A stretch of 64,000 nt of DNA from Bacteroidia bacterium (GTDB lineage Bacteria; Bacteroidota; Bacteroidia; UBA8524), in contig JAMIFM010000020.1 in assembly GCA_035906255.1 (NCBI GenBank), positions 3,917 to 67,916 of the forward strand, written 5' to 3'. Position 1 is the first letter of the stretch, and each line of letters begins with the position of its first letter. A program made the translations under genes and the position numbers. This document shows, piece by piece, positions 2,423 through 20,136 of this stretch. The notes below the pieces were generated by a model. It worked only from the letters and a program-made list of their open reading frames with translations, was not told the origin of the DNA and did no database searches.

Positions 2423-4102
2423 CTAACCCATTTGTGAGGTTTGGCCTTGCAAACGCTCTTTAATATCCAAACGGTGTTTGCGTGCGGTATCTTTAGCAAT
2501 ATCATATCCTGCATCAGCGTGGCGGATAACACCCATAGCCGGGTCGTTGTGCAGCACACGGTGCAAACGACGTTCAGCATCCTCAGTACCATCGGCTACA
2601 ATTACCATACCGGCATGGATTGAATAGCCCATACCCACACCGCCACCGTGGTGAATGCTCACCCAACTGGCTCCGCCTGCGGTGTTTATCAATGAGTTTA
2701 GTATCGGCCAATCGGCAATAGCATCGCTACCGTCCATCATGGCTTCGGTTTCGCGGTTAGGCGATGCCACCGAACCGGTATCCAAATGGTCGCGGCCAAT
2801 TACAATGGGGGCTTTTACTTTACCTTCTTTCACCAAGTTGTTAAAGGCAATGCCTGCCTTTTCACGTTCACCTTGTCCCAACCAGCAAATGCGAGCTGGC
2901 AATCCCTGAAACTCAATTTTTTCCTGCGCCATTTTTATCCAACGGTGCAAGCCTTCGTTTTCGGGGAATAACTCAAGAATTACTTTATCGGTTACATAAA
3001 TATCGTTAGGGTCGCCGGATAAAGCCGCCCAACGGAACGGCCCCCTGCCCTCACAAAACTGAGGACGGATAAACGCAGGCACAAAACCGGGGAAATCAAA
3101 AGCGTTTTTCACGCCGTGTTCAAGGGCACGGGCACGCAGGTTATTACCGTAATCAAAAGTAACACTGCCCTTTTTCTGAAACTCAAGCATTAGTTCCACA
3201 TGACGAGCCATGCTTTCATAGCTTAGTTTAATATATTTATCAGGGTCTTCACGACGCAAACGGTCGGCAGCCTCCACATCAATCGTATGCGGGTAGTAAC
3301 CAATCAATGGATCATGCGCACTTGTTTGGTCGGTAAGACTTTCAGGAATAACACCTCTTTCCATCATACGTTGCAACAGGTTAACTGCATTAGCACACAC
3401 ACCTATAGAAACCGCTTTTCCTTCTTCTTTCGCACGAAGTGCCATATCAATACCCTCATCAATGTTACGGGTCATTACATCAAGGTAACGGGTTTGCAAA
3501 CGTTTGCGAATGCGCCATTCTTCAACCTCGGCAGCCAAACAAACACCTTCATTCATGGTGATAGCAAGCGGCTGTGCACCGCCCATACCGCCAAGTCCCG
3601 CAGTTACGTTCAATGTACCCTTTAATGTACCTCCATAATGCTGACGGGCAAGCTCGCCAAAAGTTTCATACGTTCCTTGCACAATCCCTTGCGAACCTAT
3701 ATATATCCAGCTTCCGGCCGTCATTTGGCCGTACATAATCAAACCTTTAGCATCCAACTCCCTAAAGTGTTCCCAAGTAGCCCATTTGGGCACCAGCATA
3801 CTATTTGATAACAGCACACGGGGAGCATCTTTGTGGGTAGGCAATATCCCAACGGGTTTACCGCTTTGTATCAGCAGGGTTTCGTCTTCGTTTAGGTCTT
3901 TCAACGCCTTCACAATCAAATCAAGGCTTTCCCAGTTACGGGCAGCCTTACCCAATCCGCCATATACAATAAGGTCTTCGGGACGTTCGGCCACATCGCT
4001 GTCAAGGTTGTTCATCAACATACGCAAGGCGGCTTCCTGCACCCAACCTTTGCAGGTAAGTGTATTGCCCGTAGGGGTTTTAATATCGTTAATGCTAATC
4101 AT
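2423..4102 (-). CDS. hutU: Urocanate hydratase
   Basis: 559 aa with full-length urocanase similarity, including the NAD-binding GGMGGAQP region and conserved C-terminal [13 protein letters not shown] motif. ATG start. Confidence 0.95.
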
Positions 4103-4181: not shown

Positions 4182-4225
4182 GATTACGATACGGGCAGGA
4201 CTTAAGTCCTGCCCGTATCGTAATC
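4182..4225. promoter_or_regulatory. 44-bp perfect palindrome (22+22, no spacer) in the divergent hutU/fur-family promoter region
   Basis: gattacgatacgggcaggactt|aagtcctgcccgtatcgtaatc. It ends about 36 bp upstream of the -7 box of the Fur-family gene and 80 bp upstream of the hutU start. Confidence 0.6.
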
Positions 4226-4276: not shown

Positions 4277-4708
4277 ATGATGGAAACATCTTTAAATAAA
4301 GTAACCGATACCCTACGCAACCACAAACTGCGCATTACTGATACACGCACCCGTGTGTTGGGGCAATTTATGGAACGCCAACGCGCACTAACGCAAACCG
4401 ACCTTGAGGCTAATTTGGGCAAAGAGTTTGACAGGGTGACTATTTACCGTACACTGCACTCGTTTCTTGAGAGCGGTATTCTGCACAAAATACCCGACGA
4501 TAGCGGTGCTACCCAATACGCCTTGTGTGATAACTGCGACGAGCACGCCCACCACGACGAACACATCCATTTTAAATGTACCAACTGCCAAAAAATTGAG
4601 TGTTTAGACCACTATACCGTCCCAAAATTTGAAGTACCTACAGGTTATACTGTTAAAACCGCTGATTTAGTGGTAACGGGTATATGCAACAGTTGTAGCA
4701 AAAAATAA
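4277..4708 (+). CDS. Fur-family transcriptional regulator, probably Zur (zinc uptake regulator)
   Basis: 143 aa. N-terminal winged-helix DNA-binding region (RITDTRTRVL...TIYRTL) and two CxxC pairs (CDNC...CTNC) plus His-rich HAHHDEH, as in Fur-family proteins. The Zur assignment is inferred from the adjacent COG0523 gene and shared operator motifs. Confidence 0.8.
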   Translation: MMETSLNKVTDTLRNHKLRITDTRTRVLGQFMERQRALTQTDLEANLGKEFDRVTIYRTLHSFLESGILHKIPDDSGATQYALCDNCDEHAHHDEHIHFKCTNCQKIECLDHYTVPKFEVPTGYTVKTADLVVTGICNSCSKK

Positions 4709-4771
4709 CCCCCTTCACTTTCGCAAAGAGGGCTTCAGGAAAATTTATCGCTACTATTCTATTCGTGTTTA

Positions 4772-5536
4772 TTATTTTTCGCGGTGCACATCAAACTCAA
4801 CTTCAGTAGCATTGTTTTTCAAGTCAAAAACTTCTACTACAAGTAAATACTCACCGTCAGGCCACGCATCTTCAAAAACTACAGTTTCATTAAAACTTGC
4901 TGAAGTACCGCTAATATTACCATCTCTATCGAGATAATTAACCTTGGTTGTTTTATTTATTAACTTAATCTCATAGCTCTTTAACGACTCATTGTCGCCA
5001 GCTGTACTTACCAATGTGATAGTTTTGCTACCACCGTGCAAGTGTATCTCACCGCCCGATGGACTTGGAGTTGCGGCTACTGTTAACGTAGGAACAATAG
5101 AATCTAATGAACTTTTAATGGTGATATCGGCCTCTGCAAATTCAGCCTCATTACCGGCCTTGTCAAGCGCATTGATAATCAAATGGTAAGCTCCTGCTGC
5201 TACATCTTGGGGTATATCAATCGCTAAGTTTAATGTATTGCTGGTGCCGGAAATTCCTTCAATTTTAGTATAAGCAAAAGTCGGCGAACCTGTTTTTAAA
5301 TGTGAGTGCCCGTCAAAATCATCGTGTATCTCAATCTTATATTGGCTAAGATCTTTGTTGTCTGTAAAAGTAGCTGATATGTTAATTTTTGCACCCGAAA
5401 CAAATTCCTCCCCAGCAGAAGGGGTTAATAATGTAATTACAGGTTTTGTTGTGTCTTTCTCTTCATCATCTCCTTTATTACAAGCATTAAGAAAAACGAG
5501 TCCTGCGGCTAAAACAAGTATTGTTATTTTTTTCAT
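4772..5536 (-). CDS. Secreted His-rich lipoprotein with two Ig-like repeats (DUF4625-like); probable zinc-starvation protein
   Basis: Start set at MKKITILVLAAGLVFLNAC (lipobox) at 5536, not the TTG at 5587 used in the ORF track. Two internal repeats each carry His clusters (HDDFDGHSH, HLHGG). Sits directly downstream of the COG0523 gene and has its own promoter with TGCAAC-type palindromes. Confidence 0.65.
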   Translation of the reverse strand: MKKITILVLAAGLVFLNACNKGDDEEKDTTKPVITLLTPSAGEEFVSGAKINISATFTDNKDLSQYKIEIHDDFDGHSHLKTGSPTFAYTKIEGISGTSNTLNLAIDIPQDVAAGAYHLIINALDKAGNEAEFAEADITIKSSLDSIVPTLTVAATPSPSGGEIHLHGGSKTITLVSTAGDNESLKSYEIKLINKTTKVNYLDRDGNISGTSASFNETVVFEDAWPDGEYLLVVEVFDLKNNATEVEFDVHREK

Positions 5537-5552
5537 GATTTTCGTTGTTATA

Positions 5553-5594
5553 TGAAACATTGTTGCAAATATAACAAAACGCAACAATGTTGCA
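5553..5594. promoter_or_regulatory. Two copies of the TGCAAC-N3-GTTGCA-like palindrome flanking the -7 box of the lipoprotein promoter
   Basis: TGAAACATTGTTGCA (5553-5567) and CGCAACAATGTTGCA (5580-5594). The minus-strand -7 box TATATTTG corresponds to 5566-5573. Confidence 0.5.
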
Positions 5595-5600
5595 AAAATA

Positions 5601-6791
5601 TTATAATTTAAAAGGGTCGTTAAACACTTTTTTGGCCAAATACATTTTCACTTCTTCGTCCGATAGTGTGCAAGCATCCAGCGATTGTAAAATTTCAACC
5701 CTATCCACCAACTGCCCTATAAACACAATCTCAATCATCCTGTCTCCAAAAACCTTATCCCATTTGCTCTCAATGTGGGCTTGGTTTTCAACAAAAGAGG
5801 CATATCTAATTCTTTCACCGTAGGGCATAGATGCCCACCAAACTCCGGCACTTTCATAGGTAGATTGCGCACCTGCCTGCGACCAAGAAAATGCTACTTG
5901 AGGTTGTGATGCCAACCAAAAAAGCCCTTTTGACCTGATAATACTACCGGGAAACTTTGTTTGCAGGTAGTCCCAAAATCTTTCGGGATGAAAAGGTTTC
6001 CTGCTTCTATACACAAAAGAACTGATACCGTATTCATCGGTTTCGGGCGTGTGTGTATTCAGTAACTCATCATTCCAGCTTTGCATAGCCACCGAACGCT
6101 CAAGATTAAAACGATTAGTGCTCAATATTTTATTTAGTGCCACTTTGCCGTATTGAGTTTTAATAACCTCAGCGTTGGGGTTCATCTTTTTAATGATAGA
6201 CTCTAACAGCAACACATCAGCTTCACTAACCAAATCAATCTTATTTAATAGTATTACATCCGCAAACTCTACCTGCTCAGTCAGCAAACCGGTAAGTGAA
6301 CGCACATCATCTTTATCATTCGTTAAATTCCTGTCCTGTAGCTTTTCAACACTATTGAAGTCTCTAATAAAGTTAAAACAATCCACTACTGTAACCATAG
6401 TATCCAACTTACTAATCGAAGCCAAATCAATCCCCGCCTCCTTATCTTCAAAAGTAAAAGTTTGAGCCACCGGCAAAGGTTCAGAAATCCCCGTACTCTC
6501 AATCAGCAAATAATCAAACCTACCTTCGTTTGCCAGCTTTGTAACCTCTAATATCAAATCTTCACGTAGGGTGCAACAAATACACCCGTTACTCATTTCA
6601 ACCAATTTTTCCTCAGTCTTAGATAACACATCCGATCGTTGCACCAATGAAGCATCCACATTCACCTCTCCCATATCATTAACAATCACAGCAACTTTAA
6701 TACCTTCCTTGTTGTTTAACACATGGTTTAAAAGCGTCGTCTTACCACTTCCCAAAAAGCCAGATAAAACAGTAACAGGTAATTTTTCCAT
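5601..6791 (-). CDS. COG0523-family G3E GTPase (CobW/ZigA/YeiR-like zinc metallochaperone)
   Basis: 396 aa. P-loop [11 protein letters not shown] and the CxCC metal-binding motif (GCICCT) characteristic of COG0523, plus the C-terminal CobW_C-like region. ATG at 6791. Confidence 0.9.
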
Positions 6792-6795
6792 GAAG

Positions 6796-6803
6796 CAAAA
6801 ATA
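6796..6803 (-). promoter_or_regulatory. -7 promoter box (TATTTTTG on minus strand) for the COG0523 gene
   Basis: The box ends 4 nt before the ATG at 6791, predicting a leaderless transcript. The palindromic operator lies immediately upstream. Confidence 0.5.
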
Positions 6804-6810
6804 AACAAAA

Positions 6811-6845
6811 CTTAACTAAATGCAGCAATGTTGCATTTAGTTAAG
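6811..6845. promoter_or_regulatory. 35-bp near-perfect palindrome, candidate Zur-type operator (core TGCAGCAATGTTGCA)
   Basis: cttaactaaatgcagcaa|tgttgcatttagttaag with one mismatch in 17 paired positions. It overlaps the -33 region of the COG0523 promoter and lies in the divergent region shared with the ECF sigma gene. Confidence 0.6.
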
Positions 6846-6969
6846 TCACATATAAAAGTTCTTTTTGAATAAATTTATAGAAGTTTGTTTGGCGGGAAAC
6901 TTTTTTTGAGCTAATTACAACCCGCCCGAACAAAATGGCGTTTAATACATAAACACACTGCCCTTAGCT

Positions 6970-7527
6970 ATGATAAGCGAAACCGAACTGATAAAAGGAT
7001 GCGTGAATAACGACAGGTTGTACCAAAAACATTTGTACGACAGGTATGCACGCAAAATGCTATCGGTGTGTTTGTGTTATGCAAGAGACAGGTATGAGGC
7101 CGAGAATATATTACAGGAAGGGTTTATAAAGATTTTTGAGAACCTTAAAAACTATAAACCTGTGGGCAGTTTTGAAGGATGGATACGTCGCATAATTGTA
7201 AACACAGCCACCGATTACTACCGCAAAATGAAGCGGATTAAATACATAGAAGTGGATGTTGATGAGGCCGAGCACAAAGTATCGACCCTTGATATTGACA
7301 AATTTGCCACCGAGGATATAGTAGGTGCCATACAACGGTTGCCCGAAGGAGGAAGAATGGTATTTACCCTGTTTGCGGTAGAAGGCTTTAGCCATGCTGA
7401 AATTGCAGAGCAGTTGGGTATATCAGTGGGTACTTCAAAATCACAATACGCAAGAGCCCGTACCCTGCTGCAAACGATGTTGAAGAACAGCGAACGGAAT
7501 TTTTTTTTAAAACATAATATAGTTTAA
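6970..7527 (+). CDS. RNA polymerase ECF-type sigma-70 factor
   Basis: 185 aa with sigma-70 region 2 (YDRYARKMLSVCLCYARDRYEAENILQEGFIKIF) and region 4 HTH (FSHAEIAEQLGISVGTSKSQYARAR). Confidence 0.9.
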   Translation: MISETELIKGCVNNDRLYQKHLYDRYARKMLSVCLCYARDRYEAENILQEGFIKIFENLKNYKPVGSFEGWIRRIIVNTATDYYRKMKRIKYIEVDVDEAEHKVSTLDIDKFATEDIVGAIQRLPEGGRMVFTLFAVEGFSHAEIAEQLGISVGTSKSQYARARTLLQTMLKNSERNFFLKHNIV

Positions 7528-19647: not shown

Positions 19648-20136
19648 TCATTTCACTGCTTTGCAAACAGTGCGCAGTTTACCCCCTTTAATCAAAGAGT
19701 TTAACTGCTTTTCAGGCTCGGTAAGTGCTTTTTTGCTCCCGCAATTGCACAGTTCAGCTAAAGGCTCTTTATCTATTATTTTATCGTAAAGTTCTTTCAA
19801 CGTGGGTACTTCGGCCAATTTGCTATACTCTTCGTACGTATAACTCAAAAAAGCTACGTTAGCACCTATTCCCTTATTATCCAGCAGATAGCCATCATCA
19901 AGAGTTGTAGGGGTTAAAAAAGCCTCCCCCACCCTTAGGTCGGCAGGATGAGGATAGGCTATAATTTCTGTTTTATCGTCTGATAAAAGCACAGGCACAC
20001 GATTGGCATAATCGCCTTTTGTTTTATACACCAACGCTTGTGGAGCAGGTGTTTCAAAATCAGGTGTAAAAGCAATATTACTTTTGCCCATGCACGCTGC
20101 AAATGCCACCGTTAATATGCCCAGCTTTTTTATCAT
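19648..20136 (-). CDS. Small lipoprotein translationally coupled to the C10 protease gene (candidate cognate protease inhibitor or chaperone)
   Basis: 162 aa with signal peptide and lipobox (TVAFAACMGK). Its start at 20136 overlaps the last base of the C10 protease stop codon (20136-20138). Confidence 0.55.
   Translation of the reverse strand: MIKKLGILTVAFAACMGKSNIAFTPDFETPAPQALVYKTKGDYANRVPVLLSDDKTEIIAYPHPADLRVGEAFLTPTTLDDGYLLDNKGIGANVAFLSYTYEEYSKLAEVPTLKELYDKIIDKEPLAELCNCGSKKALTEPEKQLNSLIKGGKLRTVCKAVK

Follow-up and report, generated by a model that had tools for sequence, protein, structure and literature searches.

A predicted Zur regulon in a Bacteroidota bacterium, with a palindromic operator phased to four promoters

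The 64,000-nucleotide (nt) stretch of Bacteroidia DNA analysed here, called the window at its full length, contains a gene for a Fur-family regulator and four further genes whose promoters carry the same palindromic box. The four genes encode a DUF4625 lipoprotein, a COG0523 metallochaperone GTPase, a flavin adenine dinucleotide (FAD)-dependent disulfide oxidoreductase, and a TonB-dependent receptor (Table 1). Judged by comparative sequence analysis, the region very probably belongs to a Zur regulon of this Bacteroidota bacterium. An earlier reading, made from the sequence alone (the sequence-only reading), described a compact zinc-starvation module of the regulator, the GTPase, and the lipoprotein. 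The regulon in the window is larger than this, with four box-bearing promoters in place of the two that were claimed.

Table 1. Genes, boxes, and promoter elements of the window (bp, base pairs; ECF, extracytoplasmic function)
Feature	Position	Strand	Details
Fur-family regulator gene, predicted Zur	4277-4708	+	143 residues; Pfam FUR
DUF4625 lipoprotein gene	4772-5536	-	254 residues; Pfam DUF4625
Proximal operator (predicted), lipoprotein promoter	5553-5567	.	TGAAACATTGTTGCA; overlaps last 2 nt of -7 box and predicted transcription start
-7 box, lipoprotein promoter	5573->5566	-	TATATTTG; read from sequence
Distal operator (predicted), lipoprotein promoter	5580-5594	.	CGCAACAATGTTGCA; 27 bp from proximal operator
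ZigA-like COG0523 metallochaperone GTPase gene	5601-6791	-	396 residues; Pfam cobW and CobW_C
-7 box, COG0523 promoter	6803->6796	-	TATTTTTG; 7 nt past palindrome; 4 nt before ATG
COG0523 operator (predicted)	6810-6846	.	core 6821-6835, TGCAGCAATGTTGCA; inside 37-bp palindrome with one internal mismatch
Oxidoreductase operator (predicted)	12064-12110	.	core 12080-12094; inside perfect palindrome with 22-nt arms
-7 box, oxidoreductase promoter	12104-12111	+	TATTTTTG; 7-9 nt downstream of box
FAD-dependent disulfide oxidoreductase gene, DepH/GliT type	12116-13138	+	Pfam Pyr_redox_2
TonB-dependent receptor gene	13143-15512	-	789 residues; Pfam Plug, TonB_dep_Rec_b-barrel, CarboxypepD_reg
-7 box, receptor promoter	15537->15530	-	TATTTTTG; 7-9 nt downstream of box
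Receptor operator core (predicted)	15545-15559	-	TGCAATATTGTTGCA
hutU (urocanate hydratase)	2423-4102	-	divergent from regulator gene
ECF sigma factor gene	6970-7527	+	

The consensus box is TGCAACAWTGTTGCA, a 15-bp palindrome of the form TGCAACA-W-TGTTGCA. Fur-family boxes have been described with this 7-1-7 layout (PMC6103462). When up to one mismatch is allowed, the consensus has 5 matches in the 64-kb window against 0.01 expected, and none of 100 shuffles reached 5. Three of the five boxes had been found in the sequence-only reading, and the other two, at the oxidoreductase and the receptor promoters, lie outside its coordinates. Three matches with 3 mismatches (6640, 29281, and 41252) all fall within coding open reading frames (ORFs) and were dismissed as chance.

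Every box in the window adjoins a Bacteroidota-type -7 box, TAnnTTTG, at a fixed phase. The lipoprotein promoter reads TGCAACATTGTTGCG-ttttgt-TATATT-TGCAACAATGTTTCA on the minus strand. Its -7 box does sit between two copies of the palindrome, as noticed earlier; the two cores flank it, and the second copy overlaps it. At the COG0523 promoter, the palindrome had been described as 35 bp long and directly upstream of the -7 box. Its upstream position holds, but it is 37 bp long with one mismatch, and a gap of 7 nt separates the two elements. The -7 boxes of the COG0523 and oxidoreductase promoters end just 4 nt upstream of the ATG. Because of this spacing the COG0523 transcript is probably leaderless or nearly so, and the same is suggested for the oxidoreductase transcript.

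The position of TAnnTTTG relative to the first core base was also compared across the listed loci sampled from other genomes, and it falls into three sharp classes, at -6, +21 to +26, and +32 to +34. In the -6 class the core begins with the TG of the -7 box (at least 30 cases among the matches listed). All three classes are represented in the window. The lipoprotein promoter combines phases -6 and +21, the receptor and oxidoreductase promoters have +22 and +24, respectively, and the COG0523 promoter has +32. Given these classes, a bound protein would lie over the start site in some positions and over the spacer and -33 region in others. An operator over the start site or over the spacer/-33-type region is the repression geometry described for Zur (PMC6103462). 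Promoters with two boxes at 36-40 bp spacing are common in the other sampled loci, and the 27-bp spacing of the window is common to its close relatives.

The box is kept at the orthologous DUF4625, oxidoreductase, and receptor promoters of relatives whose regulators are 83%, 71%, and 56% identical to that of the window. These loci share the gene order hutU, regulator, DUF4625, ECF sigma factor, S8 peptidase, C1 peptidase, oxidoreductase, and receptor, of which the 56% loci retain only part. A double box precedes DUF4625 in all of them, and L001 and L003 have the same two-box layout. Where a locus extends to the oxidoreductase and receptor genes, boxes precede both of these as well (the receptor box of L001 is at 20019). 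The COG0523 gene is missing from the syntenic position in L001, L003, and L004. The pairing of regulator and COG0523 on which the sequence-only reading was built is therefore real in the window but is not kept in the syntenic loci of relatives, where the conserved pairing is that of regulator and DUF4625. The COG0523 gene with its own box is most simply read as an insertion in the lineage of the window. In a Chitinophagales locus and in Rhabdobacter roseus, whose regulators are 50-53% identical, the box occupies the intergenic region that separates the regulator gene from a divergent MerC-family gene, and R. roseus also has a perfect box at its oxidoreductase gene. No box occurs within 20 kb at two more distant loci, Algoriphagus and one other. 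The retention of the box at orthologous promoters and its three fixed phases to the -7 box agree, in silico, with the earlier description of the palindrome as operator-like, and its behaviour as a predicted operator is supported.

Species-representative genomes were scanned for AAATGCAACAWTGTTGCA, and perfect cores with an AAA flank were selected. This gave at least 120 loci, and the counts from these motif-selected loci are not genome-wide frequencies. About 100 of the 120 loci listed are Bacteroidota, comprising Cytophagales, Saprospiraceae, Chitinophagaceae, Flavobacteriales, and some Bacteroidales. The ORFs starting just downstream of each site were clustered, and the cluster representatives were named by Pfam. 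A recurrent family stands directly downstream of the box in 103 of the 120 loci. Fur-family genes are the most frequent (24 loci), and are followed by His/Glu-rich lipoproteins of about 200 residues without a Pfam match (20), COG0523 (15), TonB-dependent receptors (12), and oxidoreductases of the window flavoenzyme family (11). MerC occurs in 7 loci, ABC ATPase, DUF1826, and ZIP genes in 5 each, DUF4625-like and DUF3299 genes in 3 each, and ZnuA in 2. No siderophore, haem, catalase, or peroxiredoxin gene is found among the recurrent downstream families of the matches listed.

An operon of His-rich lipoprotein, receptor, and zur behind a box recurs among these matches. The His/Glu-rich lipoprotein of about 200 residues usually heads this lipoprotein-receptor-zur operon (L021, L032, L039, L051, L059, L086, L124, and others). 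Several loci have zur and a gene for a MerC-family membrane protein pointing away from each other across the box (L006 9534-10417, L008 9436-10417, L015, and L057). This protein, which has no gene in the window, may serve the regulon by transporting metal across the inner membrane. Beyond Bacteroidota, the box lies between zur and znuA in two Clostridia and before COG0523 in Eubacterium ruminantium (the clostridial loci are L013, L066, and L096), and before ZIP and/or zur in several Proteobacteria (L026, L028, L058, and L118). Since the same core stands with zinc genes in other phyla, this type of box is not confined to Bacteroidota. Its frequent position before a Fur gene of the same clade ties the box to the clade of the window regulator, and its position before COG0523, ZIP, ZnuA, DUF1826, and ZnuD-like receptors points to zinc as the signal. 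In silico, the arrangement is that of a Zur system, with a palindromic operator overlapping the promoters of zinc-uptake and zinc-sparing genes.

The regulator contains the Pfam FUR domain (PF01475) at residues 17-115, with 43 bits against a cut-off of 23.1 and an E-value of 5.8e-11. This gives it the Fur-family fold, a winged-helix DNA-binding domain with a dimerisation domain, and agrees with its naming as a Fur-family regulator in the sequence-only reading. Two CxxC pairs, C101/C104 and C137/C140, are invariant in an alignment of 25 sequences of the clade and match a structural Cys4 zinc site. H70, H96, H98, and C109 are likewise invariant across the clade. Any solved Fur, PerR, or Zur reaches at most 32 bits against the window regulator, while the box-adjacent regulators among the matches listed reach 72-129 bits. 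The closest database relatives come from uncultured Bacteroidota, followed by Chitinophagales and Cytophagales. On sequence alone the regulator is indistinguishable from PerR or Fur, and its assignment as Zur rests on context. This context, which the earlier reading also relied on, now includes the box beside same-clade Fur genes and zinc genes across genomes and favours the Zur assignment in silico.

The lipoprotein belongs to Pfam family DUF4625 (PF15418; 113.2 bits, cut-off 27, E 1.4e-32). A score above the gathering threshold, a lipoprotein signal with the lipobox LNAC, and the conserved His motif of the family together place it there. A 254-residue protein of 100% identity is in the database (P0121). 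A longer TTG-started ORF reaching up to 5587 was rejected as the lipoprotein gene. In an alignment of 24 DUF4625 sequences, the lipobox Cys and an H-x5-H-x-H motif (IH-x5-H-x-H) are invariant, and a fourth conserved His is nearly so. Both His clusters named earlier, HDDFDGHSH and HLHGG, are present in the protein. Only the first is a conserved feature of the family; HLHGG is limited to close relatives, and many homologues end in tails rich in His, Asp, or Glu. The description of the protein as His-rich does not hold, as only 7 of its 254 residues are His. Its tandem immunoglobulin (Ig) architecture is borne out by an AlphaFold2 model with two beta-sandwich (Ig-like) domains and a mean predicted local distance difference test score of 89.3. 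When the PDB was searched by fold with the DUF4625 model, all hits were generic proteins of the tandem Ig/FN3 type, RbmA and the factor XIII barrels among them, and no analogue of a metal site emerged.

DUF4625 loci were also chosen by protein and not by motif, which gave 80 metagenomic loci in 43 non-redundant clusters. A receptor gene lies immediately upstream of the DUF4625 gene in 29 of the 43 clusters. The window lipoprotein gene has no such adjacent transporter gene, the nearest receptor gene being 8 kb away. The box is present at about 11 of the 29 evaluable non-redundant clusters, after two misclassified loci were corrected by hand, and in 7/7 of the clusters with a neighbouring Fur-family gene. 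The proposition that DUF4625 is always under Zur control was rejected on the overall count. Since the box occurs at only about 11 of the 29 clusters and is missing from the large cluster of human-gut Bacteroidales, the predicted zinc control of DUF4625 is confined to certain lineages, and different metals may be served within the family. In DUF4625-receptor operons without the box (L141, L154, L163, L180, and L199), human-gut loci included, the receptor gene follows a small ORF that encodes CxxC and, at the C-terminus, R-G/A-P-P. This small ORF may point to a different metal.

A preprint proposes that DUF4625 proteins are lids of TonB-dependent transporters (10.1101/2023.03.17.533168). The window lipoprotein is in the same Pfam family as the Bacteroides BT1419/BT1420 'lid' system, and the receptor adjacency in 29 of 43 clusters agrees with the cofitness data and the AlphaFold-Multimer model of the preprint (10.1101/2023.03.17.533168). 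In contrast to BT1419/BT1420, the lipoprotein and receptor genes of the window are 8 kb apart and joined only through their common operator. The gut Bacteroidales DUF4625 loci differ from the window in lacking the box, and no substrate had previously been proposed for the family.

The COG0523 protein consists of cobW (188.9 bits) and CobW_C (86.3 bits) domains and contains the Walker A motif GFLGSGKT and a GCICC motif. These are the G3E GTPase, CxCC, and CobW_C features of COG0523 subfamily 1 (the ZigA/YciC/ZagA zinc metallochaperones); the COG0523 assignment and the CxCC motif were already in the sequence-only reading, and a box core lies upstream of the gene. Against the NCBIfam ZigA model the protein scores 554.1 bits over positions 4-394, a near miss of the equivalog cut-off of 600. 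The next NCBIfam family, MRF, reaches 172 bits. Among NCBIfam families the receptor scores highest with ZnuD, where it reaches 155.9 bits and the cut-off is 950. By its Plug and barrel domains it is classed as a TonB-dependent receptor, and by the NCBIfam test it is not a ZnuD orthologue.

The flavoenzyme has 3fbs, DepH, and GliT as its closest solved chains (E 3e-54 to 2e-38), and thioredoxin reductases follow at 3e-23 or weaker. Solved relatives of this enzyme act on dithiol natural products. Its redox pair is CPYC, and CP(Y/F)C is kept in every copy of the regulon. It thus shares the CxxC pair with the FAD-dependent dithiol oxidases DepH, GliT, and HlmI, its nearest neighbours among solved structures. 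It differs from them in standing outside a natural-product cluster, in a predicted metal regulon, and in having in this lineage a leader (STRRDFFK) resembling those of twin-arginine translocation (Tat) substrates. Apart from the window copy, just L001 and one further locus have a leader of this kind. The flavoenzyme gene is directly downstream of a box in at least 11 other genomes, and in two genomes among the matches listed it follows COG0523 in an apparent operon.

Many of the boxes lie exactly in the middle of a long perfect palindrome, which can reach 51 bp; examples are 12064-12110 and 6810-6846 in the window and sites in L024, L037, L102, L121, and others. At 15 of the 141 sites of the listed sample, the palindrome continues past the core by 7 to 18 bp on either side, where base composition predicts fewer than one such site. 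Between genomes, conservation is confined to the 15-bp core, and the arm sequences are unrelated. The window, L001, L003, and L008 share the orthologous oxidoreductase site, where the arms differ yet stay complementary through paired substitutions. Termination of an upstream co-directional gene was considered as an explanation and rejected, since the contexts (5 tandem, 4 divergent, 2 neither, and 1 both) do not account for the long palindromes.

The model Zur regulons of E. coli, B. subtilis, M. tuberculosis, and S. coelicolor have in common with the window a Fur-family repressor, a 7-1-7 box overlapping the promoter, some two-box promoters, and targets among which are a COG0523 GTPase as well as genes for outer-membrane or uptake functions (PMC6103462). 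The window differs from them in the low similarity of its regulator to any solved Fur-family protein and in the phasing of TGCAACAWTGTTGCA to the Bacteroidota -33/-7 promoter and not to -35/-10. It also has no ZnuABC or ribosomal paralogues, and its predicted targets include DUF4625 and a DepH-like flavoenzyme. The Zur-ZigA-ZnuD system of Acinetobacter baumannii has, like the window, a ZigA-type COG0523 GTPase and a ZnuD-type TonB-dependent receptor. In contrast, the window COG0523 protein is just under the ZigA cut-off (554/600), its receptor is far under that of ZnuD (156/950), and phylum and promoter type differ. A functional link between ZigA and histidine catabolism has been described in A. 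baumannii (PMC10269061). In the window hutU adjoins zur divergently, an adjacency kept in the relatives L001, L003, and L004, but the window has no box at hutU.

In the proposed mechanism, where DNA binding by the regulator, the zinc signal, the mode of repression, and the role of each product are inferred, the Fur-family protein encoded at 4277-4708 would be a zinc sensor. The zinc-loaded form would bind TGCAACA-W-TGTTGCA as a dimer. At the four promoters, the box covers the -33 region or the -7 box and the transcription start, so that transcription would be shut off when zinc is sufficient and released when it is scarce. Release would yield the ZnuD-like receptor and the DUF4625 surface lipoprotein, whose His cluster probably captures metal at the cell surface and hands it to a receptor. 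The ZigA-like COG0523 GTPase, also released, would distribute scarce zinc to client proteins. The DepH/GliT-like flavoenzyme (12116-13138) would be the remaining released product.

Several results weigh against the assignment as a Zur regulon. The regulator passes no NCBIfam equivalog; the PRK11639 Zur model, which represents an enterobacterial-type Zur, gives 35.9 bits against a cut-off of 167, and the Fur and PerR models of NCBIfam score about the same. Among solved structures, M. tuberculosis Zur (2o03) comes closest to the regulator with 31.7 bits, and PerR scores about as high. No box is present upstream of zur in the window or in its closest relatives, and the window has no ZnuABC, no ZIP, and no paralogue of a zinc-free ribosomal protein. 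A large cluster of human-gut Bacteroidales DUF4625-receptor operons is without the box, and the downstream gene counts derive from loci selected by the motif itself. No account of a Zur operator or regulon from Bacteroidota was found in the searchable literature, whose coverage is incomplete; RegPrecise, cited in PMC6103462 as a curated set of Zur boxes, lay outside the search.

Part of this evidence would fit a regulator that senses another signal, such as iron (Fur), manganese (Mur), nickel (Nur), or peroxide (PerR). The receptor and lipoprotein would then import another metal or a chelate, and the COG0523 protein would serve cobalt or iron. The equal distance of the regulator to PerR and Zur and its failure to pass a Zur model suit this explanation, as does the fact that TonB-dependent receptors and surface lipoproteins are the classic components of iron and haem systems. 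The box-less gut operons beside the small CxxC/RGPP-like ORF may mean another metal as well. The company of the box across genomes is nevertheless that of zinc, as it precedes ZIP, ZnuA, ZigA-like COG0523, and DUF1826. Siderophore, haem, catalase, and peroxiredoxin genes are missing from the recurrent families, and the best family match of the receptor is ZnuD. A different signal is therefore improbable.

It is very improbable that the box is the true operator of a different transcription factor and that the neighbouring Fur-family gene is unrelated to it. The window regulator gene has no upstream box, and adjacency by itself is no proof of recognition. Against this stand the 24 of 120 listed loci with a same-clade Fur gene directly downstream, with many more in the same operon, the box in all 7 DUF4625 clusters with a Fur-family neighbour, and the 7-1-7 architecture typical of the Fur family. 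In a third alternative the palindromes would have no regulatory function and would be structural elements or selfish DNA (hairpin terminators or small repeats, for example). Several sites do lie in long perfect palindromes, with arms of 22 nt at 12064-12110, and at some of them a hairpin could end the transcription of a preceding co-directional gene. The conservation of just the 15-bp core between genomes with differing arms, its fixed phases to the -7 box, the same gene families downstream across orders, and the occurrence of long palindromes in divergent and tandem contexts alike make this extremely unlikely. Gene content across genomes, the association of the regulator gene with the box, and promoter phasing thus contradict each alternative, and a Zur regulon remains the preferred interpretation.

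Other features of the window lie outside this regulon. The divergent intergenic region of hutU and zur contains a perfect GC-rich palindrome of 44 bp (4182-4225), with a predicted RNA fold of -42.5 kcal/mol and a z-score of -9.7. It occurs as a single copy in the window, is missing from the corresponding intergenic region of relatives, and is unlike the Zur box. Rfam and tRNA scans of the window found no RNA genes. When the window ORFs were compared by BLAST with the recurrent box-downstream families (ZIP, ZnuA, MerC, DUF1826, and others), only the five known genes matched.

Zur repressors that control a COG0523 GTPase together with an outer-membrane receptor are familiar, whereas the operator and several of the parts seem undescribed for Bacteroidota. 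A wider proposal is tentative and, taken as a whole, rather doubtful. It holds that many Bacteroidota have an uncharacterised outer-membrane zinc route, in which a Zur-controlled receptor works with a metal-binding lipoprotein, either DUF4625 with its four-His site or the His/Glu-rich protein of about 200 residues. The CPYC flavoenzyme, for which Tat export is assumed in this lineage, would act on a thiol-based ligand of zinc, either processing it or freeing the metal from it. A DNA or RNA hairpin would be part of operator function, a possibility raised by the compensatory substitutions in the arms of the box-centred palindromes.

Zinc regulation appears essentially uncharacterised in Bacteroidota, which are abundant in soil, water, and gut. 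The box TGCAACAWTGTTGCA, with its defined promoter phasing, offers a concrete predicted operator for reading zinc regulons in Bacteroidota genomes and metagenomes. The regulon also suggests testable functions for families without a known role, namely DUF4625, the His/Glu-rich lipoproteins of about 200 residues, the MerC-like proteins beside zur, and the DepH-like flavoenzyme.

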